Assembly (NCBI GenBank): GCA_963666285.1 | Contig: OY762711.1 | Source: Sedimentisphaerales bacterium | Lineage (GTDB): Bacteria; Planctomycetota; Phycisphaerae; Sedimentisphaerales; SM23-30 | Direction: 5' to 3' (one strand) | Length of the DNA: 64,000 bases | Part shown: positions 6,444 to 50,015 of the stretch, piece after piece | Numbering within the stretch: the stretch's first letter is position 1 | Layout of the letters: the number at the start of each line of letters is the position of its first letter | Position numbers and translations under genes: made by a program | Notes under the pieces: model-generated | What the model was told of the DNA's origin: nothing | The model's input: only the letters and a program-made list of their open reading frames with translations | Databases searched by the model: none

Positions 6444-6472
6444 TTGACACTTGTATGGTCGAGAGATAATAT
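6444..6472 (+). promoter_or_regulatory. Putative sigma70 promoter of the psp/flotillin operon
   Basis: TTGACA-N17-TAATAT about 185 bp upstream of the first pspA. Confidence 0.4.
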
Positions 6473-6656
6473 CAGTAGAGTTATTGAGATTGTTTTAAGA
6501 GATTTAGTATTCCAAACATGGTTTGCGCCATCCGTGTGTGATGGGTAACTGCAAAGCATTTTGACGATCAGGCGGTATCGAGAATACCCGATATTCAGCC
6601 GTCGTCGGTTATTCCAGTGTGTGTTTCTGGAAGCCTAATATAAGGAGTATTACATT

Positions 6657-7337
6657 ATGGGACTGTTCAAACGTTTACACAGAATCACCGTAGGCAGGAT
6701 CGAAGCATTTTTAGATCGCGTAGAAGATCCGGAAGTTGTATTTCCAATTCTAGTAAAAGAGATGGAAGCTCAGCTTGAAGAAACGGCCAAAGCAGAGTCG
6801 CGTGCGAGCGCGAATTTGAAGCAGGCTCGTCGTGAGTTGGAGCGACATCAGCAGCGATTGGAAAAATACAATCAAGGTGCAGTGCTGGCGATCAAGAAAA
6901 ATGACGAGCAGACGGCACATTTGGCGGTAGAGGCTCAGATTGACCTTGAACGTGTTATCGAACTGTCGCAGCAGAACTATGACAGGGCCGTTGATGCACT
7001 GGAACATGCAACAGCAAGTCGTCAGCGTATAGCCAGGCAGCTGGAAGAGCTGCGATCAAAGAAACAGGAGTTGCTGGCGCGTGTCAAGATAGTAAAGGCA
7101 CAAAAGAAAGTGCAGCGTAGTGTCTCGGGCGGGATTGGTTGTTCAGATAGTATTTTAGATTCGGTTGCCAGATTGGAAGCTAATATCGAAGAAGCAGAGT
7201 CAAAACTCGAGATACAGGCTTCATTAAATGGCGATGATTTACTTTATAGTCCGTTGGACAGGCAGTTGCGAGAGCTGGACCATGAAGCAGAAGTTCAGCG
7301 CAGGCTGGATGAGGTCCGAAAGCTGGCAATGAGCTAA
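6657..7337 (+). CDS. PspA/IM30 (Vipp1/ESCRT-III-like) family protein, paralog 1
   Basis: 226-aa coiled coil; MGLFKRLHRIT...LDRVEDPE; SD TAAGGAG. Confidence 0.88.
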   Translation: MGLFKRLHRITVGRIEAFLDRVEDPEVVFPILVKEMEAQLEETAKAESRASANLKQARRELERHQQRLEKYNQGAVLAIKKNDEQTAHLAVEAQIDLERVIELSQQNYDRAVDALEHATASRQRIARQLEELRSKKQELLARVKIVKAQKKVQRSVSGGIGCSDSILDSVARLEANIEEAESKLEIQASLNGDDLLYSPLDRQLRELDHEAEVQRRLDEVRKLAMS

Positions 7338-7464
7338 AAAAACGGATAGTATTGGAAGCTACTTAGAAAAATAATTTATGCCGGGCTGCGGCATGATTTG
7401 CAGCCTGGCAGTAAATATATTTCATGAATAACAAATGATGGTTAAATACCATCGGGAGGCAGCT

Positions 7465-8130
7465 ATGGCTATTTTTGAACGAATAAGCAGGATTATCAAA
7501 GCAAATATTAATTGGATGCTGGATATTGTTGAGCCTGCTGAAAATGAGTTAGAATCTAAAATAAAAGAACTAGAGGAAATTATCCATGAGGGCCGTGAAA
7601 GTGCGGCAATGTATGGTGCAACATACAGGCGTCTGGAGAACGATCTTGCCGAACAGGTCAAAAGTCGGGATAAATTGGCGGTTGAGGCAGAAAACGCGAT
7701 TATGGCCGGTGATGAAAACCACGCCCGAAAGCTATTGGGTGAGAAAGTCAGAATTGATGAAAAAATCGCACAGCTTGAACCGAGTGTTGCGAAAGGTAAG
7801 AAGTCTTTTGAGATGCTAAATGCAAATATTCAGAAACTACAAGGTCAGCTGCGAGAATCGAAGATGAAGCTTCGAAATTTGCAGGCCCGTAAGGATATTG
7901 CTGATGCCCAGAATGAGTTTGATAAGAAGTTGGGTGCTGCCGGTATTGTAGATGGTGACAGCGGCTTTGAGCGTTTAGAGGATGAGGTTTTGACCAGTGA
8001 GGCAGAAGTAGAAATACGACAGCAGATGCGGGGTGAGACTTTAAGTGATTTTGACCTTGAAGAGCGTTCGCGTGAATTGCAAATTGAGGCTGAATTGCAG
8101 GAATTAAAGGAAAAAATTGAAAAGAATTGA
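7465..8130 (+). CDS. PspA/IM30 family protein, paralog 2
   Basis: MAIFERISRIIKANIN..LD..E..E, AIMAGDENHAR, FERLED. Start moved from 7435 to the ATG after SD GGGAGG. Confidence 0.9.
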   Translation: MAIFERISRIIKANINWMLDIVEPAENELESKIKELEEIIHEGRESAAMYGATYRRLENDLAEQVKSRDKLAVEAENAIMAGDENHARKLLGEKVRIDEKIAQLEPSVAKGKKSFEMLNANIQKLQGQLRESKMKLRNLQARKDIADAQNEFDKKLGAAGIVDGDSGFERLEDEVLTSEAEVEIRQQMRGETLSDFDLEERSRELQIEAELQELKEKIEKN

Positions 8131-8202
8131 CTTTAATAATTACAGTGTTACTACTGTGACCTGATTTACTAATCTTCGGCCAAACATACCGTATTGTAAA
8201 AG

Positions 8203-8862
8203 GTGATTGATATGCCAGAATTATTACAAGAATCATTTTTGTCGGTGAACCTGATATCTACCACATTGCTGATATTGGTTATTATATATTGGCTGATGGT
8301 GATACTTGGAGCTTTGGATGTCGAATTATTTGATTTTGACTTGGATGCCGACGCAGACGCAGATATAGATATGGATGCTGATATAGACAGCCCCGGCTTT
8401 TTGCGGGCAGTATTGGAGTTTTTCTATATTGGCGAAGTGCCGATTATGGTGCTGGCAAGCATATTTATTCTTACATCATGGGTGATTTCTGTTATGGGTA
8501 ACTATTATCTTAATCCGGAAAGAGGAGTTTTGGTCGGAAGTGGTATTGCAGTTGGTAATTTATTTGTAAGTATAATATTAACAAAGATATTTTCTATGCC
8601 GGCCAGGAAGGTATTTAAGATGTTTGATAATGACCCTAATGCACCGAAGAAAGTAATTGGAAGAATAGGTGTTGTTCTGACCAGCCAGGTTTCAGATAAA
8701 ATGGGGCAGGTTGAGATAAAAACCAAAGGCGCCCCGATTGTGCTGAATGCCAAGACTGAGGATGGTACAGTATTAAAAAAAGGTGAAGAAGCGATCGTTG
8801 TAAGGCAAAATGAAGAAAAAACGTTGTATTATGTCATGCCTGTAGAAGTAGAAAAAGTATGA
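8203..8862 (+). CDS. YqiJ/DUF1449 (NfeD-like OB-fold) membrane protein, flotillin partner
   Basis: TM helices, acidic DADAD linker, GEVPIMV, C-terminal OB-like GRIGVV...GQVEI...LKKGEEAIVV. Alternative ATG at 8212. Confidence 0.8.
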   Translation: MIDMPELLQESFLSVNLISTTLLILVIIYWLMVILGALDVELFDFDLDADADADIDMDADIDSPGFLRAVLEFFYIGEVPIMVLASIFILTSWVISVMGNYYLNPERGVLVGSGIAVGNLFVSIILTKIFSMPARKVFKMFDNDPNAPKKVIGRIGVVLTSQVSDKMGQVEIKTKGAPIVLNAKTEDGTVLKKGEEAIVVRQNEEKTLYYVMPVEVEKV

Positions 8863-8939
8863 ATATAAGATATATATAGGCATAAGTCGAGTAACTTACC
8901 TTTTTCTTAACATACTGAAAAGAACAAATTTAGATAGTT

Positions 8940-9512
8940 ATGTTAGCAGAACTTTCAAAACCTATTATAATAACAATGGCAGTTTTCGTCGGCTTGAATA
9001 TTTCTACTTTCATTATGCTATTGTTATGCTATCGAAAGGTACCGCAAGGTAAAGCTTTGGTCAGGAATGGATTCAGCGGCTTGAAAGTTACTTTTAATGG
9101 TAAAATCGTTATACCACTATTGCATAAAGCTGAGTTTGTAGATGTTACATATAAGCGAATATTGGTGGATTGTATAAGTGATAACGCCTTTATTACTAAG
9201 GATAATGTACAAATAAATGTTCTGGCAGCTTTTTTTGTACGAATTAATAATACAGAAGAAGATGTAATAAGAGTTGTACAGGATTTGGGGTGTGAGAATG
9301 CATCTAAAATTGAGGTTATTGCAGATTTATTTAGCAGCAAGTTTAGAGAGAAATTACGAGATGCAGCGAGACAGTTTAATTATATTGATTTGGATGAAAA
9401 CCGTATGGCGTTTGGTAAAAGGGTTATGGGTTTCATAGATAAAAATCTTAACGGATATATTTTGGAAAATGTTATTATTGAAAATGTTGTAAAGATGGGT
9501 AATGATGTATAA
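8940..9512 (+). CDS. SPFH/band-7 domain-only paralog of the downstream flotillin
   Basis: Aligns to residues about 1-188 of 9609..11597 (CYRKV.QG.AL.RNGF, KIVIP.LHKAE, KDN, FFVR.NNT.EDV); has no coiled coil. Confidence 0.8.
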   Translation: MLAELSKPIIITMAVFVGLNISTFIMLLLCYRKVPQGKALVRNGFSGLKVTFNGKIVIPLLHKAEFVDVTYKRILVDCISDNAFITKDNVQINVLAAFFVRINNTEEDVIRVVQDLGCENASKIEVIADLFSSKFREKLRDAARQFNYIDLDENRMAFGKRVMGFIDKNLNGYILENVIIENVVKMGNDV

Positions 9513-9608
9513 CATCTGGCAAAGCCAGAGTGAGTATTAAAAGAATATGATCAGGTACAGGACAAATACTTTGGTCGGTAAGGAAAACTAGAGACAAGGA
9601 GTTAAATT

Positions 9609-11597
9609 ATGTTAGCAGCAATTGGATCAGAAATTATAATAACAAGTATTGCTATTATAATATTATTTATAATAGGGTGTCTGGCATTATTGATGAAATG
9701 CTATAGGAAAGTCTCGCAAGGTGAGGCTTTGATTAGAAATGGTTTCGGCGGAACCAAAGTTATTTTTTCAGGTAAAATTGTTATTCCGATTTTGCATAAA
9801 GCGGAATATATGGATATATCTGTTAAGCGTATTGAAATTGACAGACGCGGCGAACAGGGATTGATCTGCAAGGACAATCTGCGTGCTGATATTGTAGTTG
9901 CTTTCTTTGTGCGGGTTAATAATACGGTTGAAGATGTTAAACAGGTAGCACAGGCATTAGGGTGTAAACGAGCTAGCAGCCAGGAGGCCCTGGTAGAGCT
10001 GTTTGATGCAAAATTCAGTGAAGCCTTGAAGACTGTAGGTAAGCAATTTGATTTTGCCGAGCTTTATACGAATCGTATGGCATTTCGCGAGCAGATTCTG
10101 GATATCATTGGTACTGACCTTAGTGGATATGTCTTGGAAGACGCGGCGATTGATTATTTGGAACAGACAGATAAATCCATGCTGAAGCCTGATAATATAC
10201 TGGATGCCGAAGGTATTAAGAAGATTACCGTGCTGACGGCTGAGCAATATGAGCTGGCTAATGCTCGTGAACGTGAAAAAGATAAGACGATAACACAGCA
10301 GAATGTTGAAGCGCAGGAAGCTATTCTGGAGTTGAATAAGCAGCTGGCGGAAGCTGAAGCCAAGCAGAAACGAGAAGTGGCGTCTATCCAGGCACATGAG
10401 GAAGCCGAGACCAAACGTGTGCAGGAAACAGAGCGTGAGCGTGCCGAACGAGCGCGTATCACAGCTGATGAAGAAATTGCAGTTGCGGAAGAGAATAAAA
10501 ATCGCCAGATAATTGTTGCGGCGAAAAACCGTGAGAAAACAGATGCGGTTGAAACCGAGCGGGTAGAACGCGATCGTGGTCTGGAAGCAACAGAACGTGA
10601 ACGCCTGGTAACGATTGCCCAGGTTGAAAAAGATAAAGTGGTGGAAGGTCAGAAGAAAGAATTACAGGCTGCTATTCGCGAGCGTGTGACAATTGAGAAG
10701 ACTGTTGTTGCCGAACAGGAACGGATTAAGGATACCCAGGAATTTGCCGGTGCCGATCGTAGCAAGCAGGTTCAGGTTACCAAGGCAGAAGAAGTTGCAG
10801 AAGCAGCATTGGTTAAAGATATCAAGGCAGCGGAAGCATCTAAACGAGCCGCTGAGTTATATGCCGAACAGCAGTTGATCGAAGCGGATGCCAACCAGAA
10901 AGCCGCAGATAAGAATGCAATTGCCAAGAAGACCCTTGCCGAAGCGTCAGTTAAGGAAGAGGCTGTTAACGGTGTAGCGGAAGCAGAGGTAATGGAAGCC
11001 AAGGCTGCGGCAATAGAAAAACAGGGAACGGCAGAAGCCAAGGTCATGGAGCTTAAATATCATTCTGAAGCAGATGGTATTCGTGATAAGGCTGAAGCGA
11101 TGAAGATATTCGACAGTGTCGGTAAAGACCATGAAGAATTCAAACTGCGTCTTAACAAGGACCTGGAAGTTGATCTTGCAGCTATTCATATCCAGAAGGA
11201 TATTGCCGAACAGCAGGCGATTTTGATTGCAGAAGCATTGAAATCAGCACGAATCGATATTATCGGTGGTGATAATACCTTCTTTGATAAGCTGGTCAGC
11301 TCAATAACCGCCGGTAAGAGTGTTGACAGGATGATTTCCAATAGTGAAGTATTGAGCGAAGTCAAGGACACATTTATTACAGGTGACGCGGAAGAGACAT
11401 CAGGTAAGATTCGAGAATTTGTCAGTCAGTTTGGTTTAAGCAGTGAAGATATCAAGAATTTGACAGTGTCAGCTTTAGTGGCCAAGATGGCAGGTCTGGC
11501 TGATAATGAACAGAAGCCTGTTTTGGAAAACCTGCTTAGTACTGTTAAATCTTTGGGTATTGGAGATAAAACTGCCAAGCAGTTCTTGAAGAAATGA
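9609..11597 (+). CDS. Flotillin family (SPFH plus coiled coil, YqiK-like) protein
   Basis: N-terminal TM, GLICKDNLRAD, NILDAEGIKKIT, long Ala/Glu-rich coil; SD AAGGAG. Confidence 0.9.
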   Translation: MLAAIGSEIIITSIAIIILFIIGCLALLMKCYRKVSQGEALIRNGFGGTKVIFSGKIVIPILHKAEYMDISVKRIEIDRRGEQGLICKDNLRADIVVAFFVRVNNTVEDVKQVAQALGCKRASSQEALVELFDAKFSEALKTVGKQFDFAELYTNRMAFREQILDIIGTDLSGYVLEDAAIDYLEQTDKSMLKPDNILDAEGIKKITVLTAEQYELANAREREKDKTITQQNVEAQEAILELNKQLAEAEAKQKREVASIQAHEEAETKRVQETERERAERARITADEEIAVAEENKNRQIIVAAKNREKTDAVETERVERDRGLEATERERLVTIAQVEKDKVVEGQKKELQAAIRERVTIEKTVVAEQERIKDTQEFAGADRSKQVQVTKAEEVAEAALVKDIKAAEASKRAAELYAEQQLIEADANQKAADKNAIAKKTLAEASVKEEAVNGVAEAEVMEAKAAAIEKQGTAEAKVMELKYHSEADGIRDKAEAMKIFDSVGKDHEEFKLRLNKDLEVDLAAIHIQKDIAEQQAILIAEALKSARIDIIGGDNTFFDKLVSSITAGKSVDRMISNSEVLSEVKDTFITGDAEETSGKIREFVSQFGLSSEDIKNLTVSALVAKMAGLADNEQKPVLENLLSTVKSLGIGDKTAKQFLKK

Positions 11598-11711
11598 TAA
11601 GGCATAAAGGGCGGTTAACGCCTTTGGCAAGCCTAAAATAATTGGTGTGGGCAGTATTTCTTCGGGAATTTTGTCCGCACTACTGAATGAATATGCGTAA
11701 GGATTGAGATC

Positions 11712-14700
11712 ATGGTTGATAATGATTCTACTGCTGATGTACAAAAGCCGGTTCAGGCTGATAGTACTGAACAGCTGCAGGGTGGTACATATGAGATATT
11801 GCGTGACAGATTGCTGAGTCACGGCAAGGAGCTTCAGGATCGTCTTGGGAAACTGAATGATGACCGCAAGAGCGTCTTTGGCTCTATTGAAACTAAATTG
11901 CTAAGCAGTCAGCGAATAAGTACCGATAACAATTGTGTGCCGCGTGATATGGTGCCGGTTGGCAATAAGTTTATCTTCGGCTATAATGTTTTTGTCGGGC
12001 TGCGTTCTGAGATGCAGATATCAGATGTTTTTGCTGTTTACAGCTGGCAGGACGGGCATTTTGCGGCGGAATCATTATCGCTGTTGGAAGACGAGGAATT
12101 CGCGACAGACTTTTTCAATCTGTACAAATATTATCGTAATGCTCGTTTTGTAAAATTTGCAGTTATCGGCGCTTATCTGTATATGGTTTTTCGTGTAGGT
12201 AAGTCGGTAAATGATATCAAGACATTCAAGTGGCTGATGAAGGGCGATAGCCTTAAATATTGTGATAACCGCAGCGACCATGAATATGTTTTTCCGGCTC
12301 AACATGGTTTTGAATGGAAAAAAGCTACCCAGGATATGCACCGTTCCGGTTTGAGCCCGCATATATCAATAGAGGACATTGTTTTTGTCGAGACTATCGG
12401 CGGTGATTTAACTATCAAGATCGAAGATAATACCGAGTCCGGCGAGGGCATATATTCTGAACCGGTTGAAAATCCTGACCAAACGCTTGCAGATGCAGAA
12501 ATATACTATTCCATAATCGATCATATGGTAGTTATGAAGATACGTCCATACCAGGAGCAGAAATTCAGGTATTTGATATATAACTCCAAAGTTGAGCAGG
12601 TAACTAAGGTTGATTCGATTAAAGATGCCTGTGTTTTATTGCCGGAAAATCACGGCTTGATATTTCCCAAAGGATATTATCTTCAGACTGGTGAATGCAA
12701 GAAATTTAATATAGATATCAATGATATGGTTTTTGAAAAGCAGATAAGCTCGCCAAATGGTGAAGATTATTTATTTGTTTTTTATAACAGAGAAGACGGT
12801 GTTTATGTTTTATTGTCTTATAATACAATTAACCAGTTGATCGAGAACCCGTTTATTTGTAACGGCTATTCCTGTTTCGATGATGGTACAATGCTGTTTT
12901 TTAAGGCTGATCAGGACCCGCAGAAACATCATGTTGTGCAGGTGTGGCAAACGCCGTATTACGGCCCTGATTACAGTATGGATATTCGGCATGATTCCGA
13001 GCTGTACAAGATAGGTAATAAAGATATCGTCCGGTGTATGGCTGAATGTTCGGCACTGCTTAATCTGATAGATAAAAAAGAAGGTTATGTAAACCTATAC
13101 ATGGATATTAATAAGCAGTCGCAGGATATACGTGATGCTTTTTTCTGGCTTGATTCTGAAGTCGCATATAACCTTGTTGAGCCATTGGCTGAGATATCTA
13201 TTGCGGCGGCAGCAGCGGTAGATGAATATGAAAAAGTTGTCCGAACACGGGAGAACACACGCAAGCAAATAAAAGATGTTCATAAACGGGTGACGGAGCA
13301 TCTTGAATCGATTGATTATGGAGCGTTGAATGATGTAGATGTGTTTGTGGAACATCTTGCTACATTGCGAGGTTTGCGAGGTGAGATAATCTCGCTCAAG
13401 GATTTACGTTATGCAGATTTGGAGCTGATCGAGAAGCTGGAAGAAGATGTAACCGTAGAGACAGACAAACTTAGTGACCTTTGTGTTGAATATCTGCTGC
13501 AGCCAGACGCACTTAAACCTTATAAGATTCGTGTTGATAAGTTGGGTAAGGTAGTGCCGGAACTGAAAAAGGTAACCGATGTAAGAGATAAAACCGAAGA
13601 GGTTAATCAAATATCAACAGAACTGGAGATGTTGACAGAGATTGTAAGTAATCTTAATATCTCCGATGCTACTCATACGACCGCAATTATTGACGCAATA
13701 TCACTGGTTTTTGCGGTGGTGAACCAGGTTAAGGCGGCATTAAAGAATAAACTTAACGAATTAGCGGTACTTGAAGGTAAGAGCGAGTTCAGTGCCCAGA
13801 TAAAGCTGCTGGATCAGTCTGTTATTAATTATCTGGATCTATGTGATACGCCGGAGAAATGTGATGAATATTTGTCTAAGGCATCAGTACAGCTGGAAAC
13901 TCTGGAAAGCAAATTTACTGATTTCCAGGAGTTCATTTTAGAGCTAAGCGAGAAGCGAGAGGAATTATTTAATACGTTTGAATCTCGCAAGGTTCAATTA
14001 GTTGCGAAGCGTAATCAGCTGGCAGACGCTATGATGACATCCGGCAAGCGGATATTAAATGGTATAAAAAAACGTATTGCTTCACTGGGTGATGTAAACG
14101 CTATCAACGGTTTCTTTGCATCTGATATGATGGTTCAGAAACTGCGTGAGACCGTTGAGAAATTATTGGAACTGGGTGATTCAGTTAAAGCTGATGATAT
14201 TAACAGCCGGTTGAAGAGTATACAGCAGGATGCGGTACGACAGTTAAAAGACAGGCAGGCCCTGTTTGAAGACGGTGATAATGTAATTAAGCTGGGCGAA
14301 CATCGCTTCAGGGTGAATAAGCAAAACCTGGAAGCAACGATGGTGGTTCGTGATGACCAGATGTATTATCATCTGACTGGCACAGGTTTTTTTGAAAAGG
14401 TCGCAGATGAGCAGTTGAACGGGACGAGAGAAGTCTGGCAGCTTGATAGTATTTCCGAATCCGTCGATTTATATCGGGGTGAATATTTAGCTTATAAGAT
14501 GCTGGAACATTTGAATAATGATGATGTTAAGCTGAAAATGCAGCTTTGCCGGGCAGAGTCAAACAAGGTTCTTGATTTTACTCGTGAGTTTATGGCACCA
14601 AGGTTTGCGGAAGGATATGTGAAAGGAGTTCACGATCATGACGGCAGTATGATTCTGCATAATTTGCTGCAATTAGAAAATGAGATAGGGCTACTGAGAT

Positions 14701-17039
14701 TTTCAACTCAGGCTAGAGCTATGGCTCTATTATTCTGGCAGCAGTGGCCTAACTTAGTTCAGAAAGAGATCCTTGCCGCGAAGATAGAAAGTGTCGGGCA
14801 GTTACGGCAAACGTTCAGTGCCGAACAGGCTAAGTGTAACTATATCTGCCTGCTGCGAGATTGTATGGAAGAGTATTTCGAAGGAACAGGTTTATTTGAT
14901 ATGAATCTTTTGGATTCAGCTTCTGAGTACCTTTTTGAAGAATTGGCAGATAATGACAAATGTTGTGTCAGTAAAGCTGCCAATGATATTGTTAGTGATT
15001 TTGAGAGACGTTTGAGTAAAGATCAGCATGCAAAACTGACCGAAACCATTAAAAAGTTAAAAGATGATACCTTAGGTGGTTTTATGTTGGTGCGAGACTG
15101 GGTAAGGAGTTTTGTTGAGCAGGAGAAAGGCAACCTGGTTTATGCCGATGAGGCTGCTGTATTGATCCTGGATGCCGACCGAGGCAAACGTTATATTATC
15201 AGCCAGGATATTGAACGCAAGCTGGAAGGACTAGTTGGTTCGCATAGATTAATTGATAACGGCAATTATGTTTTGAACTATTGCGACTTTTCGGACAGAT
15301 TGAGTTATCATGAGAAGGTTGTTGTTCCTAAATTTAACATGTATCGCGACCGCAAGAGAGAGCTGATCGACCAGTTTGCTGTTGATATGAAGCTTTCAGA
15401 GTTTAAGCCCAGAATATTGACTTCATTTGTACGAAATCAGTTGATAGACAAAGTTTACTTGCCGCTGATTGGTGATAATCTGGCTAAGCAAATAGGTGAT
15501 GCAGGTGAGAATAAACGTACTGATTTGCAGGGTCTGCTGTTGTTGATATCACCTCCGGGCTATGGCAAAACAACATTGATGGAGTATATCTCCAACCGGC
15601 TTGGCTTGATATTTGTAAAGATTAACGGTCCGGCAATAGGTAATAAAGTTACCAGTTTTGACCCCGGTGAAGCGCCCAATGCTGCCGCGAGAGAAGAATT
15701 GAACAAGCTCAACCTGTCATTTGAGATGGGTGATAATGTGATGATCTACCTGGATGATATACAGCATTGCAATCCGGAACTGCTGCAGAAATTTATTTCT
15801 CTTTGTGACGGTCAGCGTCGCGTAGAAGGTGTTTATAAGGGTAAGAGCCGTACTTATGACCTGCGCGGCAAGCGGGTTTGTGTTGTGATGGCTGGAAATC
15901 CTTATACTGAGAGTGGTGAGAAGTTCCGGATTCCTGATATGCTGACCAACCGTGCAGATACTTACAATATAGGTGATATTGTCGGCAATAATTATGATTC
16001 TTTTGTTTTGAGTTATATTGAAAATAGTATAACTTCCAATCCGGTACTGGGTAAGCTTGCCAATCGCAGCCAGAAGGATATTGCCGCTGTTATAAGGCTG
16101 GCTCAAACGGGTCAGCGAGAAGGGCTTGACTTTGAGGGAAGTTATACCAGTGATGAGTTAAACGAATATGTATCGATCATGAAGAAATTATTCAAGGTTC
16201 GTGATGTGGTACTGAAGGTAAATCGACAGTATATCGATTCTGCGGCACAGGCTGATGAATATCGTACTGAACCGCCGTTTCTGCTCCAGGGCAGTTATCG
16301 AAACATGAATCGTATTACAGAACGGGTATTACCTGTAATGAATGATGATGAGCTTTGGACACTGATAGAATCGAATTATCAGCAGGATGCCCAGACACTG
16401 ACCTCCGGGGCGGAATCCAACCTGCTTAAGTTTGCCGAACTTGTCGGCAGGCAAACAGAGCAGCAGGCTGCTCGCTGGCATGAGATCAAGCAAACCTTTG
16501 GCAGAAATCTGCTTCTGGGCGATGAAACACAGGATAAGGTGGCAATGGTTGTAAGGCAGTTGAATGCTTTTGGTGCCGGGCTGGATTCGATCAAGGATGT
16601 GTTGGCAAAAGGGGTTGATTCTATGGTGAATATTCCTCAACCTGATCTAAATATGAAAGAGGACGAGGACCAAAGTAAAGCGTTTGCCGAGGCATCGGCA
16701 GCAATGATTGATAAACTTGATTCTGTTGTGGGTGAATTACATCAGAGTAGAAAACAATTTACCGAGCAGGCTGAGCAGTATAGGGCGGTTGATGTTGAAA
16801 AGAATGCGGACATGTTGCTTTCTGTGCTGCAGGAGCAATATAATACAATGGAGACCTGGCTGATGAGGGTTACCAGGAATCGTAAAGGTCAGCTTAAGTA
16901 TGTAAATGAACTTGTGACACGATTTGAGAATATGATTGAGGGGTATAGCAATATGATAGAGTATTTGCGGGGCAGGTATCTGACAGATAGCAAAACAAAG
17001 TCGGCTGATGAGAATGATAAAAAACAGTCAGATGAATAA
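11712..17039 (+). CDS. Giant coiled-coil AAA+ ATPase (resembles the DUF3686 'DNA repair ATPase' family)
   Basis: Walker A SPPGYGKTT, Walker B VMIYLDDIQH, sensor VVMAGNPY, Arg finger MLTNRAD; beta-rich N-terminus and long helical middle. Confidence 0.82.
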   Translation: MVDNDSTADVQKPVQADSTEQLQGGTYEILRDRLLSHGKELQDRLGKLNDDRKSVFGSIETKLLSSQRISTDNNCVPRDMVPVGNKFIFGYNVFVGLRSEMQISDVFAVYSWQDGHFAAESLSLLEDEEFATDFFNLYKYYRNARFVKFAVIGAYLYMVFRVGKSVNDIKTFKWLMKGDSLKYCDNRSDHEYVFPAQHGFEWKKATQDMHRSGLSPHISIEDIVFVETIGGDLTIKIEDNTESGEGIYSEPVENPDQTLADAEIYYSIIDHMVVMKIRPYQEQKFRYLIYNSKVEQVTKVDSIKDACVLLPENHGLIFPKGYYLQTGECKKFNIDINDMVFEKQISSPNGEDYLFVFYNREDGVYVLLSYNTINQLIENPFICNGYSCFDDGTMLFFKADQDPQKHHVVQVWQTPYYGPDYSMDIRHDSELYKIGNKDIVRCMAECSALLNLIDKKEGYVNLYMDINKQSQDIRDAFFWLDSEVAYNLVEPLAEISIAAAAAVDEYEKVVRTRENTRKQIKDVHKRVTEHLESIDYGALNDVDVFVEHLATLRGLRGEIISLKDLRYADLELIEKLEEDVTVETDKLSDLCVEYLLQPDALKPYKIRVDKLGKVVPELKKVTDVRDKTEEVNQISTELEMLTEIVSNLNISDATHTTAIIDAISLVFAVVNQVKAALKNKLNELAVLEGKSEFSAQIKLLDQSVINYLDLCDTPEKCDEYLSKASVQLETLESKFTDFQEFILELSEKREELFNTFESRKVQLVAKRNQLADAMMTSGKRILNGIKKRIASLGDVNAINGFFASDMMVQKLRETVEKLLELGDSVKADDINSRLKSIQQDAVRQLKDRQALFEDGDNVIKLGEHRFRVNKQNLEATMVVRDDQMYYHLTGTGFFEKVADEQLNGTREVWQLDSISESVDLYRGEYLAYKMLEHLNNDDVKLKMQLCRAESNKVLDFTREFMAPRFAEGYVKGVHDHDGSMILHNLLQLENEIGLLRFSTQARAMALLFWQQWPNLVQKEILAAKIESVGQLRQTFSAEQAKCNYICLLRDCMEEYFEGTGLFDMNLLDSASEYLFEELADNDKCCVSKAANDIVSDFERRLSKDQHAKLTETIKKLKDDTLGGFMLVRDWVRSFVEQEKGNLVYADEAAVLILDADRGKRYIISQDIERKLEGLVGSHRLIDNGNYVLNYCDFSDRLSYHEKVVVPKFNMYRDRKRELIDQFAVDMKLSEFKPRILTSFVRNQLIDKVYLPLIGDNLAKQIGDAGENKRTDLQGLLLLISPPGYGKTTLMEYISNRLGLIFVKINGPAIGNKVTSFDPGEAPNAAAREELNKLNLSFEMGDNVMIYLDDIQHCNPELLQKFISLCDGQRRVEGVYKGKSRTYDLRGKRVCVVMAGNPYTESGEKFRIPDMLTNRADTYNIGDIVGNNYDSFVLSYIENSITSNPVLGKLANRSQKDIAAVIRLAQTGQREGLDFEGSYTSDELNEYVSIMKKLFKVRDVVLKVNRQYIDSAAQADEYRTEPPFLLQGSYRNMNRITERVLPVMNDDELWTLIESNYQQDAQTLTSGAESNLLKFAELVGRQTEQQAARWHEIKQTFGRNLLLGDETQDKVAMVVRQLNAFGAGLDSIKDVLAKGVDSMVNIPQPDLNMKEDEDQSKAFAEASAAMIDKLDSVVGELHQSRKQFTEQAEQYRAVDVEKNADMLLSVLQEQYNTMETWLMRVTRNRKGQLKYVNELVTRFENMIEGYSNMIEYLRGRYLTDSKTKSADENDKKQSDE

Positions 17040-17091
17040 AACTATGTTTTGATAAATAAGCAAGAGAAAGCAGTTTATAGAAAAACAGCAT

Positions 17092-17766
17092 ATGTCATTA
17101 ATAAAAAAATTAAAACGAATAACACTTAGCCGTATCGAGGCTTTTCTTGACACACTGGAAAATCCGGAATATATTCTGCCGCAATTGCAGAAAGAACTTG
17201 CCGGTAAGTTGGATCAGGCGATAAACGCGCAGGCAAAGTCTTTGACTGCGGTTAAATCGGCAAGGCGAAAACTGGATGAGCTTGAGGGGAAGCTGTTGAG
17301 ATATGATAAACTGGTTACCGCGGCTGTTGCGGAAAAGGATGAGCAGTTGGCGCGTAAGATATTGTCGGCTCAGATACAGGTTGAGGAAGAGAAAGGCAGG
17401 CAGCAGTCTCAATTGCAGGGTACTGAGCAGGCATATTTACAGGCGAAACAGGTATGTGAGCAACTTAAGAAAAGCCTGGATAGCTTAAAGCAGAAAGTCA
17501 GGGATTTGAAATATCGGGATACGATGACTAAACAAATGCAGGCAATGCAGAGAAAAGCCGGCTGGACCGACGATTGCAAGGCGGATTCTATCCTGGAAGC
17601 AGTCGCAAGAATGGAAGAGAAGGTAATTGAGAGGGAATCAGAGGTAGAGGTTCGGCAGGAGATGACACATCTGCTTCTGGATGATGATTCAATTGAAGAA
17701 TTGGAGAAAAAGGCAGAAGTTGATCGGCGACTTGCTGAGCTACTAAATAATAACAAGAATAACTAA
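17092..17766 (+). CDS. PspA/IM30 family protein, paralog 3
   Basis: MSLIKKLKRITLSRIEAFLDTLENPE; DSILEAVARMEE; clearly similar to paralog 1. Confidence 0.85.
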   Translation: MSLIKKLKRITLSRIEAFLDTLENPEYILPQLQKELAGKLDQAINAQAKSLTAVKSARRKLDELEGKLLRYDKLVTAAVAEKDEQLARKILSAQIQVEEEKGRQQSQLQGTEQAYLQAKQVCEQLKKSLDSLKQKVRDLKYRDTMTKQMQAMQRKAGWTDDCKADSILEAVARMEEKVIERESEVEVRQEMTHLLLDDDSIEELEKKAEVDRRLAELLNNNKNN

Positions 17767-18233
17767 ATATTAGTATCTGTCTGGTGACTTACCTAACTCC
17801 TTTACCTTTGATAATTTATAGTTAATATCCCTGAAATGCAGAAATGAATTGTCTAAGTTATTGTAAAACAATGCTTTAGGGGGGGGGTTCACTAAGCGAT
17901 CTGTACGTTAGGCAGTATCGTTTATTCAATTCTGGCAATATCATATAAATCAGCCTCAATTTGTACCAGGCGAATCATGCTATAACACTTTATCTAACAA
18001 TGCTTTATATTAATCTTTTCAGTCGAATAGGAAGTGTTGATTATTTATTGGGTTGATAATTATGTGGTTGGACTGATTATATATATGTGTGATATTAATT
18101 TAGGAGATTATCTGTAGAAAGAGGATATTCAATTCTTGTCAGTTTCACATGATTTGGTGGCAAAAGGCGAAAATTCTTTTTGAACTATATTTACAGTATT
18201 ATCTATGATTTATCTTTGGAGCAAGGTGGAAAT

Positions 18234-21200
18234 ATGACCTGTAACATGAATTTGCCTGTATTAATTTGTATATTTATGGTACTTTTCTCAGGGTTAAGTT
18301 CGGATATTTATGCTGACAGTGTTGTTACTTTTAATGAGATTATGTATCACCCGGAAGATAGCCAGGCTGATAGTGAATGGATAGAACTGTATAACCAGAT
18401 GGCTGTGGATATAGATTTATCTGGCTGGGCTATTAAAGGAGCCGTTAAATATACATTTCCAGAAGGTACATTTATATCAGGCGGGAGCTATATAGTTGTC
18501 GCAAAGCTACCGGATGAGTTAATTTCACTAGCCGGAACAGAAAATGTTTTCGGTCCGTTTGATGGCCAATTATCTAATAGTGGTGAATCGCTCAGGCTGG
18601 AAACAGGCAGTGGTCGAGTGATGGATTCTATTACATATAACGATAAAGGCAGCTGGCCGATTGGTCCGGATGGCTCCGGGGTATCACTTTCAAAGAAAAA
18701 TAAGAATCAGGCCAGTCTATATTCTCAAAACTGGACTCATAGTCATCAGGTTGGTGGTACTCCAGGCGCTGAGAATTTTCCGGTAAAGGATCTGAGACAA
18801 AATCGTGTTGAGTTAGTAGGAAAAAATGATGTTTGGAAATACTGGGACTGGGGAATAGATTTGGGTACTGAATGGAAAGTTTCAGGTTATGATACTACAT
18901 ACTGGAGGCAAGGTGCAGCTGGATTTGTCTTTGGATATAATGTTGAAACGGGTGAGATGGAACCCGTTACGACTTTATTTAGTACAGGTTTGGATGATGA
19001 TGGCTTTCCGCTTACTACTGGAAGTTATGATTTGCATTATGAATTTACAGCTACCGGCGAACCTGTTTATGCTATGATTAACCATTCGGCATGGCTTGCT
19101 AATGACAGCAGTTCACAATGGATTGGATTCAGTAGTTCAGGAACTGATTCGCAACCTGTTGGACTTTTTCCAATTTCGACAACATTTGATCTCGATGGAT
19201 GGGACCATGAAACTGTTGGTATAACGATGTACATCGCAGTTGACAATGCTGTTGGCGATGTGCTGATCAATGGAATTAGTACAGGCATAACTTGCAATGT
19301 TTATGATAGCTGGTGCGGTCCTTTTGTGATAGATTCCGGTTTTGTTGCAGGCCGGAATGAATTGACTTTTAACTTTATAAATGAAGGTGACAGTATTAAT
19401 CCGGCAGGTTTGCGGGTTTGGATGGAAGCCGAAGCAATGACCAGCCTTGGTAATACTGAACTGACGTCCTGTCCTCAAACGTGTTATTTTCGAAAAAACT
19501 TTCTATATGATCCGACTGATGAGACAACAGTGGGGTTAAGTCTGGATTTTACTGTTGATGATGGTGCGGTATTTTACCTGAATGGTCAGGAAATATATCG
19601 CTATAATATGCCTGACGGAGCAGTTGAATACAGTACGTATGCCGAGACAGATATTGTAGAGATTTTATCAAATGGAGAGATTCAAGTACCGGCGGAAGCA
19701 TTGGTTGCAGGAGAAAATATTTTTGCTATAGAGGTGCATAATGTCGCAGCAGGAGAGAGTGATTTTTATTTTCAGGCTGAACTAACAGCAATTGAAACTC
19801 CAATAGATACAGCAGAAACAGTAAATCTGGTATTTAATGAATTATCTGCTTCTGAAGCTGGTCCTTTTTGGGTTGAAATGGTGAATTATGGAAATGAAAC
19901 GCTTGATTTGACAGGTGTGGTAATTCACCTCGATGGTCAAGTAGACCAGGAATATGTGTTACCATCAGGGGTATTAGGTGCTGGAGACTATATAGTTCTG
20001 GATGAAACAGTGCTTGGTTTTTCTCCTGAAGTAGATGATAAAATGTATCTTTACTGGGCAGGTAAACAGTTATTGATGGATGCCGCAATTGTTAAGGATG
20101 TCCTGCAAGGTAGAGAAACGCCTGATTCGGACTATTTTTCTTATCCGCAAATATGTACACCGGGTGAAGATAATATTATTGGAACTAATAATGATATTGT
20201 CATTAATGAGATAATGTATCACAAGGGAGATATCTTTGCCAGTCCTGGTGTCTACGAAACAGTTGTACTTGTCTCGAAAGGTCATCAGGCCAAGGTTTTG
20301 GTACCTTCTGCCAGTCAGGTCGATACCTGGACTGGTGCAGATGAGCCGTTTGATGATTCTTTATGGCAAGATGGATATTTAGGAGTCGGCTACGATAACG
20401 AAGGTGACTATAATTCTGATATTGGAATAGATATTCATGATGATATTTATAACCAATGTCAAACTTTTTATGTTCGGACCGAGTTTGAACTGACAAATAC
20501 TACAACTGTGGGTTCAATGACATTGAGGATGAAATACGATGATGGATTCATCGTTTATCTAAACGGAATTAAAATTGCTGAGGTGAACGCACCTGATGAT
20601 CCTGATTGGACTAGCAGTTCAACTGGTTCGCATGAAGCAAGTGAATATGAAACGTTTGATGTTTCTGATTACGTAGAGGCATTAAAAAACGGAAGTAATA
20701 TTCTGGCCATACAGGGTTTTAATTATGGTGTGACAAGCTCTGACTTGCTGGTTCTGCCTGAATTAAGCATTGTAGATGAAATTGTAGCTCCAATTGAAGC
20801 CGATGAATCCTCTGAAGAATGGGTAGAATTATATAATCGGGGTGCAGATACAGTTAATCTTGAGGGATGGGAATTAGATGGAGATATATCATATGTATTT
20901 GAAGCTGCTACTCTGCTTAATGCCGGTGATTATTTGGTTGTAGCGCGTGATCGCGAGGCATTATTGACGGATTGGCCAGAAATTAATATCGTAGGTGATT
21001 TTGATGGGCGGTTGAGCAATTCTATTGGTTCAGTTATTTTACGTGACCCGCATGATAATATTGCAGATGAAGTAAAATATTATGATGGAGCACCATGGCC
21101 TGAGGATGCTGACGGTTATAATGCCAGTCTTGAATTATGTAATCCTTTTGCAGATAATAATTCGGCTCTCTCATGGTCGGCAAGTAACGAGCAGGATAAG

Positions 21201-24200
21201 TCATCATGGCAAACTTACACTTACCGAGGTATAGCAAGCCCGAGTATAATATCACAACCAGACAGTCAGTGGCGAGAATTTGTATTGGGCATGCTGGATG
21301 CCGGAGTGCTGCTGATTGATGATATTAGTGTTGTAGAAGATCCCGATGGTACTGCGATTCAGCTTTTGCAGAACGGTACTTTCGAAGATACTCCGGGTGA
21401 AAATTCCTGGCGATTATTGGGCACCCACCGCCATAGTTCTGTTGTTATTGATCCGTATGACTCGGCAAATCACGTCTTGAAGCTGGTTTCGACGGGTACA
21501 ACTGATCATATGCATAACCATATTGAAATCACTCTGGCAAATGGTAAAAGTGTTACAAATGGACAGACATATGAAATTTCGTTTCGAGCCAGGTGGGTTT
21601 CTGGTTCAAACCAGCTAAATACACGCTTATATTTTAACAGATTAGCAAACACTACACTGGTAGAAAAGCCGCGTTTGAATGGCACTCCGGGCACATTAAA
21701 TTCTCAATATGTCGTAAATCCCGGCCCTGTATTTTCTAATTTTAGTCACTTTCCAGCAGTGCCTCGCTTTGATGAAGACATAACAATTTCTGCAAAAATA
21801 AGTGATCCGTCCGGCATAGCAGGCGCAATAATGGAATGGCGTATCGATGGAAATACATGGAATTCAATCTCGATGACCACAAATGGTGATAGTTTGTATT
21901 CGGCTGTAATTCCTAAACAGGCCAGTGGTTCAATCGTTCAGTTTTATATCAGAGCAAGTGACCTGCAAGGGGCAATATCTGAATATCCGGTAGGCGGTCC
22001 TGATTCGCGGGCATTGTTCCGAGTCGATGATGGTTTAGCATCTGAAAATGGACTCCACAACATGCGTATTCTCACTACCAGTGATGATAATTCATGGCTG
22101 CATACAGACATTAATGTTATGAGTAATGACAGGATAGCTGCTACTGTAATTTATGATGAGGAAGAGATATTCTACAATGTTGGTATTCGGCTGAAAGGCA
22201 GCCAGCATCATCGTACACCATCTAACGAGGTTGGTTTTAATGTACAATTTCATGCTGACCAGCTATTTCGAGGTGTGCATAAAACTGTTGCTATAGACCG
22301 GTCACAGGGAGTAGGCTTCGGTCAGCGTGAGTTATTAATAAATCAGGCAATGAACCATTCTAATGCCGTAGCAAGCAAATATACCGACCTGATCAAATTG
22401 ATGCCAAATCTGGCTGTACATACCAGTACGGCAGAGCTGCAGCTTGCCAGGTTCAATGATGAGTTTCTTGATGGTCAGTTTGAAAATGGCAGCGATGGTA
22501 ACTTATATGAATATGAACTGGTTTACTATCCTCTCGCGACCAATAATGGTGACGAAGAAGGGTATAAAATACCACTTCCGGACAATCCCGTTGGGGTTGG
22601 AATTTATGATTTAGGTGTGGATAAAGAAGCATACCGTTGGCTATATCTGGGCAAAAATAACAGGGCCTGGGATTCGTATGATACTCTAATGGATTTTTGT
22701 AAGTTTTTCGGTGATTCATCCAATGTATACTACGAACAACTTGATTCGGTAATCGATATTGACATCTGGCTTGAGTCGTTTGCTATTGCAGTTGCAAGTG
22801 GTTCAGGTGATAATTATGGTGGTGACAATGCCGCACATAATGCGATGATTTATGTTCGGCCAGAAGATGGACGTGTATTATACTTCCCTCATGATCTGGA
22901 CTATGCATATGAAACAACTCGTTCTATTGTGCCAAACAGTGATTTAAACAAAATGATTGCTAATCCAAATTTGGAACGCCTGTATTATGGTTACTTGTAT
23001 CATATCCTCAACAGTTCTTATAATGTGACATATATGTCACATTGGACTGACCATTTTGGCGAACTACTGGTGGGGCAGAACTTTGATTCTTATCTGACTT
23101 TTATCGGTGAAAGATATAATTACTTGTCAGGAGAGTTGAATGCCAGGATCGCGGCTGATTATGGCTTCGTAATAACTGATTTAGATAAAGTTGTTGATAG
23201 TGATTCGACTACTATTGAAGGAAAAGCATGGATCAATGTTAAATCAATTCGATTGGTCGGGATGGATGGTGACCTTGATATCTCATGGAGTAAAACAGGC
23301 AGTGGAAGCAGTTCTGAATTCCATTGGCAGGCCAATGTGCCTTTAGAGCCGGGCGTTAATAATCTTGTTTTTGAAGCTACCGGGTTTAATGATGAACTGA
23401 TTGGCCAGGCATCAATTATAGTAACCAGCACGCTTGAGGACAGACCGCTACGAGAATTCTTCAAAATCAGTGAAATTATGTACGATCCACAAGGTGGAAC
23501 AGATTATGAATTTATCGAGGTTACAAACACTGGACCTGAATCTTTGGACTTGACCTATGTTTCATTTAATGATGGGATTGATTTTGCCTTTCTAAACAGT
23601 AATGTTAATAGTATAGATCCCGGTGAGTATGTTGTAATAGTTAAGGATATATCGGCATTTACATCACGGTACGGCTCGTCCGGTATTGTTGTTGCAGGTG
23701 AATATAGCGGCAAGCTGAGTAATGATGGTGAGAAACTTTCTATTATTGGCCAGTGGAATGCAGAGCTTGGCACAGTTACATATAATAATGGCCGTGGCTG
23801 GCCACTGGCAGCTTCTGGTGCCGGGCATTCGATAGTACGGGATAATAGTTTTGACGGCTCCGATGATTATGGTATGAATTGGAGGGCCAGTACTTATATG
23901 AATGGCTCTCCGGGGCAGGCTGATGTACAGTTGTGCCAATCTGTCGTAATTAACGAGATAATGGCACATACTGATTATTCTGATAATGATTATCCGGAAT
24001 ATGATTCTAATGACTGGATCGAACTTTTTAACCCTGGTTCATCTAACATTGTCCTCGACGCTGGAGAATGGTATTTAAGTGACGATGAAGATGATCTGAA
24101 AAAGTGGGAATTGCCACAAACAAATATATCAGCATTTGGTTATGTAAGTTTCGATGAAGTCACCGGTTTTAACAATCCGATTGGAACCGGTTTTGGATTA

Positions 24201-39358: not shown

Positions 39359-39871
39359 TTATTCGTACCTGGCTAAAAGGCTTTCAATATCTTCGGGCTT
39401 CACACACGCATGGACATCATCATTAATAATAACTACCGGTGCTAAACCACAGGTACCTAAACAACGTGAAGCATCAAGCGTATAAAGCTTATCTTGTGAA
39501 GTCTCGCCTGGCGTTATACCTTTAAGCTCAGTAATTTTGTCAATAATCTGCTGGGCACCTTTAACATAACATGCAGTTCCGAGGCAAACATTAATGATAT
39601 TTTTCCCACGCTCTTTTAATCGGAAAAAATGGTAAAAAGACGCTACTCCGCTTACTTGTGATGCCGGGACATCTAATAAAAGTGCAACAGCATCAAGCTG
39701 CTTACTGCTAAGCCAGCCATTTATTGCCTGAACCTTGTGTAAGACGTTAATTAACTCACTTTCCGATCTTTCTTTCTGAAGACACTCGTTAATAAACTCA
39801 ACAACTTCAGGTGTCAGCGTTGCTTTGGCTTCATCATAGACTTTATTGATATTTTCATTTAATTCTTGCAT
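39359..39871 (-). CDS. NuoE/HydC-like thioredoxin-fold [2Fe-2S] hydrogenase subunit
   Basis: VCLGTACYVKGA, CLGTCGLAP; ORF is open from 39898. Confidence 0.9.
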   Translation of the reverse strand: MQELNENINKVYDEAKATLTPEVVEFINECLQKERSESELINVLHKVQAINGWLSSKQLDAVALLLDVPASQVSGVASFYHFFRLKERGKNIINVCLGTACYVKGAQQIIDKITELKGITPGETSQDKLYTLDASRCLGTCGLAPVVIINDDVHACVKPEDIESLLARYE

Positions 39872-39915
39872 GATTCTATTCCGTAAAATTATGAACATCT
39901 TAACTATTGAATATA

Positions 39916-44535: not shown

Positions 44536-44572
44536 AACAGGCCTCGTTTAGAATAGAACAATCTCTTATCGA

Positions 44573-45340
44573 TCAAGCAGTTTTATCGTGTTTAAGTTTT
44601 TCTTTAAGAGGGCTTAAAATACTTTCAGTAATAATTTCAGCCTCTGTCATAATGCCGTCAATTCGATTTCGAAGAACCGATAAGAAGAATAAAGAAGGAA
44701 TAGCGACAACGAGTCCAAGGCAGGTTGTAACCAAAGCTTCGGATATAGCTCCGGCCAGCTGAGCCGAGCGTGAAGCCCCTTCCAAAGCGGCGATAAAGTT
44801 AAAAGCTGATATCATACCGGTTACGGTACCCAATAAGCCGAGCATCGGAGCGGAATTGGCAATAAAAGACAAATATTCCAATTTTCGATATAGAAATCCA
44901 GATTCGCGGCGGGCCGCTTCTTCAACGGCCTTTTCAATATCATAATATCCCATAATTGAATTACGTTGAGAAAGGCCAAAAGCTAAAACCCGGGTTAAGA
45001 AGTTGTCGTAATTATCGCAAATTTCTACAGCTTGCAGAAGCTCATCTTTGGCGATATGTTCGCGAATACTATCACTGAGATCTTCAGGCAATAATACAGA
45101 TTTTCTTATGGTTAGCATATGCTCGATAACCAAAGCAGCTGCACATACACTCATCCCGATAATTATATAGCCAATGATACCACCTTTTGCAATAGTCCCC
45201 CAAAGCGTAATTGTTTCAGAGGTTTCTGCAAGCACAAGGTCAGAACCGGGAGCATCTCCTGCCAGCAATATTGCAGAAGAAATAGCGATAATAAATGTAA
45301 TAATAACTAAACTGATATTTTTCATATATAGAACTCTCAA
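44573..45340 (-). CDS. MotA/TolQ/ExbB proton channel family protein
   Basis: APMLGLLGTVTGMISAF, LAGAISEALVTT..GL.VAIP; start may be 45325. Confidence 0.93.
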   Translation of the reverse strand: MRVLYMKNISLVIITFIIAISSAILLAGDAPGSDLVLAETSETITLWGTIAKGGIIGYIIIGMSVCAAALVIEHMLTIRKSVLLPEDLSDSIREHIAKDELLQAVEICDNYDNFLTRVLAFGLSQRNSIMGYYDIEKAVEEAARRESGFLYRKLEYLSFIANSAPMLGLLGTVTGMISAFNFIAALEGASRSAQLAGAISEALVTTCLGLVVAIPSLFFLSVLRNRIDGIMTEAEIITESILSPLKEKLKHDKTA

Positions 45341-49740: not shown

Positions 49741-50015
49741 TTAAAGCTAAGGCATATGAATGTTTTTCACGAATTTGTTGATAAATGTATCAAGGATGAA
49801 AAAATGTAGATGAAAAGAGAGGAATAATTGGGGAAAGTGGTTTGGTATATAGGATGGAATAAGTGCGAAATGGGGGTTTGGGGTGTGTTTATGCCGGAGC
49901 TGCGGGAGACGGAGGAACGGTAACTTTGGGAGATGGGCGGGTGTATTTGGGGTAAGTATATGATATGGCGGGTTTTATGCTGGTTTGGAATGGTTAAGAA
50001 ATTGTTAGATCGGAC

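Follow-up and report, generated by a model that had tools for sequence, protein, structure and literature searches.

An operon-like locus of Sedimentisphaerales joining three PspA paralogues, a flotillin and a giant MoxR-like ATPase behind a structured RNA leader

The window analysed here, a 64,000-nucleotide stretch of Sedimentisphaerales bacterium DNA (assembly GCA_963666285.1, contig OY762711.1), carries on its + strand seven co-oriented genes in the order pspA1, pspA2, yqiJ, an SPFH-only gene, a long flotillin gene, a giant AAA+ ATPase gene and pspA3. The three PspAs are fixed paralogues that are nearly always retained jointly, YqiJ, flotillin and ATPase form the constant unit of the locus, and a conserved RNA leader precedes pspA1. 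We lean, if only somewhat, towards reading the locus as a translationally gated membrane-stress or repair operon, in which the ATPase would service a flotillin cage and the three PspAs would work there jointly. An earlier note on this DNA had proposed a membrane repair, remodelling or anti-phage system, of which a membrane-stress role is supported by family knowledge, and had known of no characterisation of this expanded form. The combination of PspA, flotillin and ATPase is in print (Ravi 2024, PMC11237479); the note was right to single out the three-PspA form, of which no description was found.

All seven open reading frames (ORFs) were recovered where the earlier note had placed them, and profile searches agree with the PspA, YqiJ/NfeD, SPFH and AAA+ identities that it had given. 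PspA1 (226 aa, 6657..7337), PspA2 (221 aa, 7465..8130) and PspA3 (224 aa, 17092..17766) reach 90.6, 91.5 and 69.9 bits with Pfam PspA_IM30, all over the cut-off of 33.9, and the PF04012 matches in the source genome (97% complete) are these three genes only. With the enterobacterial PspA equivalog TIGR02977 the three score 44–82 bits against a cut-off of 243. The YqiJ/YuaF (NfeD-like) membrane protein (8212..8862) is matched by YqiJ_N with 25 bits (cut-off 23), and the 1775-aa protein (11712..17039) by DUF3686 (613 bits), DUF7902, AAA and AAA_5. The 662-aa flotillin-type SPFH protein (9609..11597) scores 52 bits with Band_7, over the cut-off in the genome profile search; the first Pfam scan missed this match and likewise gave none to the Flot domain PF15975 at E 0.05. 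Two gene starts were revised, that of pspA2 most likely to 7465, by its Shine-Dalgarno sequence and in line with the 221-aa database form, and that of yqiJ probably to 8212. No pspB/C/F-like ORF is present within the seven-gene run, as the earlier note had seen; the rest of the genome was not searched for them. The extent of 6657..17766 that it had assigned holds all seven genes and leaves out the upstream part of the unit, namely a promoter-like site at 6444..6472 and the 155-nt structured leader at 6505..6659.

The genes are separated by 52–127 nt in this locus; in 11 related loci most gaps stay below 120 nt and several genes overlap. Such spacing is as expected of one operon, and the seven genes can be regarded as one operon-like unit. 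For comparison, ATPase loci were pooled from the 80 best loci of GTDB genomes, stretches round matches in genome samples and 6 of 13 plasmid-collection matches; 80 were left after removing duplicates and loci with less than 6 kb upstream, mostly best matches and biased to close kin. The complete order pspA1-pspA2-yqiJ-flotillin-ATPase-pspA3 recurs in 10 of 80 other loci, which argues against a chance arrangement, and three PspA matches are found in 11 of the 80. The SPFH-only gene (190 aa, 8940..9512, Band_7 48 bits) does not belong to this order. Its product shows 49% identity over 158 aa to the start of the neighbouring flotillin, its GC content is 32% compared with 39–48% in the other six genes, and it occurs also in loci L010, L011, L027 and L123/L124 and not in the nearest locus, L008. 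Identity, base composition and its presence in few loci mark it as a sporadic truncated flotillin duplicate of accessory nature, and not as the core part for which the earlier note had taken it.

Flotillin and YqiJ each accompany the ATPase gene in 77 of the 80 loci, in support of a tight linkage. The PspA profile found none, one, two and three matches in 40, 26, 3 and 11 loci, respectively; the 40 are an upper bound, because the profile misses a divergent PspA-like gene adjoining four loci of family f15, and a PspA encoded elsewhere in the genome could serve such loci (Ravi 2024, PMC11237479). The constant unit is therefore YqiJ-flotillin-ATPase, with PspA as an optional addition. This core is also present in Bacteroidota, Pseudomonas, Streptomyces and Deinococcus, and the closest relatives of the ATPase are Phycisphaerae and Sedimentisphaerales records. 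The flotillin comprises a membrane segment, the SPFH domain, a long coiled coil and a conserved C-terminal cap; its NfeD-like partner and the long coiled coil fit the SPFH2 type (PMC2636767), and a sequence search of solved structures gave no match to it. Of 151 genomes of the order 16 encode the ATPase, and of 401 genomes of the class 15 have it over the cut-off; it was absent from all three same-genus genomes searched, two of them 94–98% complete. Such a patchy spread argues against an essential role.

Some of the sampled loci show peculiarities of their own. In L062 (10001–14871) the ATPase gene is split over three frames by frameshifts or assembly errors. The Rufibacter loci L051, L061, L067 and L073 encode a short, fast-evolving PspA (186–210 aa) beside intact CesT, YqiJ, flotillin and ATPase. 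On plasmid pQBR103 (L103) a single run comprises YjfI-PspA, the DUF350/glutathionylspermidine synthase genes and also YqiJ-SPFH-ATPase, so that the two CesT-PspA contexts of Ravi are united there. A divergent PspA-like coiled-coil protein, with no Pfam match at E 0.01, is paired with a tandem AAA protein in L090 (1647–2504 and 1–1545), L092, L096, L100, L111, L112, L121, L122 and L076; the partner has a classical aromatic pore loop and a DE Walker B. This pair is unrelated to the trio; in family f15 it is a neighbour of the flotillin operon, and in two trio-less ATPase genomes it is encoded elsewhere. It is probably Ravi's two-AAA-domain context and seems to resemble a Vps4-type pairing more closely than the giant ATPase.

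The three PspAs exceed the curated PspA_IM30 cut-off and are similar end to end to solved PspA/Vipp1 structures. Each begins with a basic amphipathic helix (mean hydrophobic moment 0.37, 0.51 and 0.29 for PspA1, PspA2 and PspA3, net charge +2.4 to +3.1, means that include some rows with mis-set starts), and their overall mean net charges are −4, −7 and +2. PspA1 and PspA3 end in an E-x-x-x-R-L helix, which aligns with the ordinary helix 5 of PspA/Vipp1. In a tree of 45 of 76 rows, with 31 long-branch, degenerate, near-duplicate or surplus-outgroup rows removed, the proteins group by gene position with supports of 99/98 for clade A2, 99/97 for A3, 80/70 for A1 and 100/99 for A1 with its sister A3; in the full quick tree, which carried long-branch warnings, A1 is not one clade. 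PspA2 is the most acidic and most distinct paralogue and PspA3 the fastest-evolving. Mean identity is 42–59% within the clades and 21–35% between them. By these comparisons the three PspAs are old, position-fixed paralogue clades and not recent copies.

Their distribution is equally regular. When the 151 genomes of the order were searched with a custom PspA profile, 33 matches reached 214 bits or more, and they come from 11 genomes with exactly three apiece; the next best match has 143 bits. All 11 genomes are ATPase-positive, no comparable match occurs in the 135 ATPase-less genomes, and Pfam agrees. The other five ATPase genomes of the order have no intact trio-type PspA gene. Outside the order two genomes carry all three PspAs, and one, G407 (96% complete), carries PspA2 and PspA3; a strict all-or-none rule is broken by this genome, and since it lost pspA1 yet kept the other two, the trio is not strictly obligatory. 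In G274 an intact pspA3 lies on another contig, away from the operon (L109:8572-9228). A metagenome scan with PspA1 yielded only 2 loci, apparently of one organism. In the ATPase tree all trio loci fall into one clade with SH-aLRT 100 (21 trio and 7 trio-less rows), and the trio history takes at least five changes, three of them forced by strong branches; a single gain followed by up to four losses is our reading of them. As pspA3 is separated from pspA1 and pspA2 by the 5.3-kb ATPase gene, each joint loss would need two deletions, and repeated joint loss across that gene suggests mutual dependence of the three PspAs, whatever its manner. A complex prediction for PspA1, PspA3 and PspA2 scored 0.00 in both runs, a value that by the tool's own statement counts neither way.

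The second lineage-specific element is the leader. Among the regions upstream of pspA1 in 18 loci the best gapped word occurs in 17, compared with at most 8 in 20 shuffles, and the leaders fold as a four-way junction whose closing helix joins the 5′ end to the Shine-Dalgarno sequence (window z-score −2.1). In the present locus helix P0 pairs 6507-6513 with 6644-6650 over the pspA1 Shine-Dalgarno, P1 spans about 6518-6559 with an internal loop, and P2 (6563-6606) and P3 (6607-6635) each bear a 2-nt NA bulge beside a U-G pair. To assess covariation, 14 of the 18 leaders were aligned by sequence only and compared with this structure: 92.8% of cells are paired, compensatory change is seen in 23 of 38 pairs, three of them in the closing helix, and none of 500 shuffles scored as high. 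Slid controls were 32–54% paired, a comparison in which a structure drawn from the same sequences is favoured. A covariance model recovered four loci held out of training with 85, 80, 69 and 30 bits. In 150 genomes of the order its strong matches are those of the 11 trio genomes, one copy apiece, with one weak match besides. The 150 genomes searched of the class yielded four strong copies, all in trio genomes, and two weak matches, and trio-less or other-phylum loci among 86 sources yielded none. Rfam 15 contains no match at the gathering threshold (best 16 bits, E at least 1.1, two members), and no published account of the leader was found, RNA-motif collections outside Rfam lying beyond the search.

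The leader structure is conserved and covaries, stands immediately 5′ of a single gene family and covers the ribosome-binding site, as is expected of a cis-regulatory RNA. The Shine-Dalgarno sequence is predicted to be 70–80% paired in all 14 leaders and to cost 2–10 kcal/mol to free; the leader thus appears, in these folding models, to hide the pspA1 ribosome-binding site. The repeated U-G/NA-bulge motif of P2 and P3 suggests a protein site. A TTG-type −35 hexamer stands 34–37 nt before the leader in 10 of the 18 loci, by which the leader probably begins at the transcript start; in the present locus the distance is 61 nt, and the promoter-like site is of sigma-70 type (−35/−10, 10 of 12 positions, 17-nt spacer). 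The promoter scan taken alone is no evidence, because 36 promoter-like sites in the region compare with 33.5 by chance. A swap of the leader 5′ end onto the 3′ strand of P3 was considered and rejected, the alternative helix being unsupported. In G407 (L088:194-280) P2, P3, the Shine-Dalgarno and the start codon are kept as a remnant of 17.6 bits, followed by about 250 nt without PspA1 similarity and then by pspA2, an arrangement from which a deletion of pspA1 is deduced. Two leader copies (L018:5494-5681 and L029:4528-4734) carry hairpin insertions in the P3 loop (about 46 nt) or the P2 loop (about 65 nt) with the core intact. Weak model matches in L136:1501-1681 and L138:1501-1593 (24 and 28 bits) end at the start codons of unrelated genes, and the one in L136 shows a P3-like hairpin before a Shine-Dalgarno.

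The ATPase consists of a beta-propeller (residues 62-413) set in a helical bundle, four tandem three-helix bundles (489-848), a helical domain, the AAA+ module and a helical tail. In the module the Walker A motif (1280-1288), the Walker B aspartates D1348-D1349, the sensor-1 N1396 and the invariant R1414 are all conserved; the enzyme is therefore likely active, to judge from these residues. A DD Walker B is also that of DnaA. An AlphaFold model of residues 1170–1760 (116 sequences, pLDDT 87.4, pTM 0.70) contains a pre-sensor-1 hairpin (1370-1383), a split helix 2 and the displaced lid of the MoxR fold. In a structural search of 48,161 chains CbbQ was the top match (Z 17.6, rmsd 3.5, 250 aligned residues) and NorQ the second (Z 17.0), followed by Rea1 (14.6), dynein (13.7) and Vps4 (11.7 and 11.1); in Foldseek, too, CbbQ came out on top, and MCM and RuvB had E-values close to its own. 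Vps4 is a classical-clade AAA protein without the pre-sensor-1 hairpin. The analogy with Vps4, central to the earlier note, is consequently weak, and it loses further ground from the loci, where PspA goes undetected in half of the 80 and flotillin is missing in only 3. In its mode of action the modelled protein resembles a MoxR-type remodeller whose arm is part of the same chain; it is not Vps4, nor is it filed as a MoxR member. As to the von Willebrand A (vWA) partner of MoxR proteins, the seven proteins contain no vWA Pfam match and no DxSxS motif, and such a partner was not sought elsewhere in the genome.

A second model (residues 1–1200, 63 sequences, pLDDT 85.0, pTM 0.53) places the propeller at the end of the four tandem bundles. 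The bundles gave generic structural matches only (Z at most 11.5) and no Pfam MIT match; one of the many matches, at Z 9.7, is an entry for the Atg1 C-terminal domain, a tandem MIT domain. The propeller with its helical rod matched coat and tether proteins in Foldseek with TM-scores of 0.06–0.14, an ESM Atlas search with residues 430–1230 had no usable match, and a sequence search of solved structures aligned around Walker A only. A service of the C-terminal tail to the PspA trio was ruled out, as the tail is Planctomycetota-wide and present also in trio-less members.

The operon of Sedimentisphaerales and a few other Phycisphaerae would then be built in two layers. In the old and widespread one YqiJ and the long flotillin would form a membrane microdomain cage, and the long-armed ATPase, linked to them in the genome, may bind and service the cage or its contents. 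In the lineage-specific layer the PspA paralogues, gained once and afterwards kept or lost together, would most likely co-assemble as a composite ESCRT-III-like polymer or work as a fixed set at the stressed membrane near the cage. Transcription would start from a housekeeping-type promoter, and the folded leader would keep the ribosome-binding site of pspA1 covered until a trigger, most plausibly a protein on the two repeated bulge motifs, opens or locks it. The leader may stand in for the repressor and CesT-type genes of other phyla.

Several observations weigh against this scheme. All three PspAs were lost repeatedly with the YqiJ-flotillin-ATPase core persisting, and neither the ATPase, with 8 weak alignment columns, nor the flotillin, whose consensus is alike in trio and trio-less loci, shows a clear trio-specific feature. 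G407 does without pspA1, its PspA2 and PspA3 sitting on long branches, and G480 keeps a 133-aa degenerate PspA2 remnant before yqiJ (L120:5127-5528) though its trio is lost. Full-length ATPase genes in L034, L035 and L041 have neither flotillin nor YqiJ in 10 kb upstream. The alternative, "open" helix of the leader mentioned above shows no covariation (352 of 500 shuffles as high), and disappearance of the leader together with pspA1 is expected from adjacency alone. Moreover, the counts overstate independence, the 80 loci being mostly close-kin best matches and the 11 trio genomes being related.

Of the alternatives we rank highest, while still holding it unlikely, a division of labour without co-polymerisation, in which one PspA forms the polymer and the others serve as a cap or CesT-replacing chaperone, a cage adaptor or a reader of the leader. 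The CesT-type gene and the repressor found in Bacteroidota loci are indeed missing from trio loci, a CesT-fold protein, BacA, acts as negative operon control in P. aeruginosa (PMC10948618), the paralogues differ strongly in rate and charge, and joint loss would fit such a division equally well; yet all three are full-length proteins with the basic amphipathic helix and the end-to-end similarity to polymer-forming PspA/Vipp1. Ranked after it, and likewise doubtful, is the ATPase as a convergent Vps4 stand-in that grips a PspA polymer by its three-helix bundles or propeller and extracts subunits. MoxR-type motors do remodel protein substrates, all 14 genomes with trio-type PspA carry the ATPase, pspA3 directly follows its gene, the modelled tandem bundles belong to the fold class of MIT domains, and the terminal helix of PspA1 and PspA3 resembles Vps4-binding motifs. 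The last two likenesses are undercut by the generic character of the bundle matches and by the alignment with helix 5, and the idea as a whole by a motor unlike Vps4, by the lack of trio-specific ATPase features and by the persistence of the ATPase in loci without detected PspA and after each trio loss.

Much less probable is anti-phage or anti-toxin defence at the membrane. The patchy spread and the related set on plasmid pQBR103 would suit it, but PADLOC gave weak matches only (E at least 0.0015), the scanned neighbours include no defence genes and are carbohydrate-processing, secreted and housekeeping genes, and the subtrees of the three PspAs and the ATPase look congruent by eye, as in long vertical descent with losses. 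Least probable of all seems a machinery for the internal membrane architecture or division of the phylum. ESCRT-III relatives shape membranes, and the coat and tether matches of the propeller and rod point the same way; these matches have very low TM-scores, however, the ATPase went undetected in 135 of the 151 genomes of the order and in the same-genus genomes, and the core is shared with Bacteroidota, Pseudomonas, Streptomyces and Deinococcus. The tie to elaborate planctomycete membranes, which the earlier note had found attractive, is not supported by the distribution of the ATPase. The membrane-stress operon with three jointly acting PspAs is thus the reading we retain.

A bolder form of the retained reading is a convergent three-subunit composite ESCRT-III polymer, nucleated at the flotillin cage, turned over directly or via the cage by the MoxR-type motor, its output set by a new regulatory-RNA class that senses a free subunit or a membrane-stress signal; in this complete form it is put forward tentatively, as unlikely. 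If true, it would be a bacterial convergent parallel to staged ESCRT-III/Vps4 systems. Whether composite PspA polymers exist in bacteria, and what disassembles them without Vps4, are open questions according to a 2025 review (PMC7619361), and for direct reconstitution the operon offers a candidate motor together with three co-retained PspAs, soluble and about 25 kDa in size. For the widespread DUF3686 family, set near MoxR and beside flotillin, the label "DNA repair ATPase" is misleading, and the placement provides a testable model that ought to be relevant to the bac operon of P. aeruginosa as well. The leader would put a Psp-type response under control at the RNA level; the published accounts of such responses, in the parts available, give protein regulators only.

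Further features of the window concern the operon and its surroundings. A 13-bp hairpin is predicted by folding in the pspA1/pspA2 gap (7378..7406, +), and two predicted hairpins in the flotillin-ATPase gap (11598-11711), together −36 kcal/mol, may set transcript stability or stoichiometry. Terminator-like sites number 14 against 8.3 expected, and none follows pspA3 within the scanned region. Two large, probably secreted proteins are encoded on the + strand, a 785-aa LamG/thrombospondin-3 repeat protein (23-2380) and a 2299-aa lamin-tail/CotH/CBM protein (18180-25079). On the − strand a [FeFe] hydrogenase large subunit with a 2Fe-2S thioredoxin-like gene (39359-41664) fits an anaerobe, and a conventional MoxR AAA_3 gene (405 aa) with two ORFs upstream (43318-46251) is unrelated to the operon. 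A stretch of 2.4 kb (47689-50118) has no ORF of at least 150 aa, and the top GC skew of the window, 0.35, lies at 48001-50000.

Among known systems the closest is the CesT-PspA-YqiJ-flotillin-AAA+ operon of Ravi 2024 (PMC11237479), alike in the four gene types, their order and the ATPase architecture. That study catalogued PspA, YqiJ, flotillin and a beta-propeller/coiled-coil/AAA+ ATPase as a functionally untested set and noted abbreviated forms without PspA; in its available text the ATPase is not placed in an AAA+ clade and the three-PspA form is not mentioned. Bacteroidota loci of our sample match its description, 20 of them with the CesT cluster. The present operon differs in having three fixed PspA paralogues instead of one, with one of them after the ATPase gene, in the absence of a CesT/Tir gene and an adjacent repressor from trio loci, and in the structured RNA leader and the sporadic SPFH-only duplicate. 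Neither the three-PspA form nor a MoxR assignment was found in the literature, a search that did not extend to the Ravi web-app tables, the full supplement parts 1 and 3 and subscription papers; with this scope the fixed PspA trio and the RNA leader appear to be new.

A Pseudomonas fluorescens plasmid locus of the YjfI-PspA...SPFH-ATPase type shows 56% identity in the AAA region and has no match to the leader model. BacD and BacE of Pseudomonas aeruginosa are presumably the flotillin and a member of this ATPase family, to which PA3728 would belong as well. The P. aeruginosa genes bacA-F, a CesT-fold protein, PspA and four further genes, are co-transcribed according to RT-PCR, and BacA negatively controls its own operon (PMC10948618); PA3728 is listed as "ATPase" (PMC8190622). 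The bac operon differs from ours by its one PspA, a proposed sigma-54 promoter and control through BacA (PMC10948618). Identity with Arc2 of the same species was ruled out, since Arc2 is PA4317-23 (PMC8926400). In Bacillus subtilis pspA-ydjGHI (samGHI) an SPFH protein is likewise tied to PspA membrane recruitment (PMC9239133, PMC13713150), with YdjI as the precedent (PMC9239133, PMC11188069); that set lacks a giant ATPase and has other membrane partners and one PspA.

The modelled motor has its best structural matches, lid included, in the MoxR chaperones CbbQ and NorQ and in midasin and dynein modules; it is set apart from CbbQ and NorQ by the lack of vWA among the seven genes, the 1200-residue N-terminal arm, 13% identity and the DD Walker B. 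With the archaeal and eukaryotic ESCRT-III and Vps4 systems (CdvB/B1/B2 with CdvC) the operon shares several superfamily paralogues beside an AAA+ ATPase and possibly a composite polymer, whereas its paralogues belong to the PspA branch and its ATPase is MoxR-like, 1775 aa long and tied to flotillin. According to the 2025 review a Vps4-like ATPase appears absent in bacteria, and PspA duplications with the capacity for composite filaments occur in fewer than 10% of lineages (PMC7619361).

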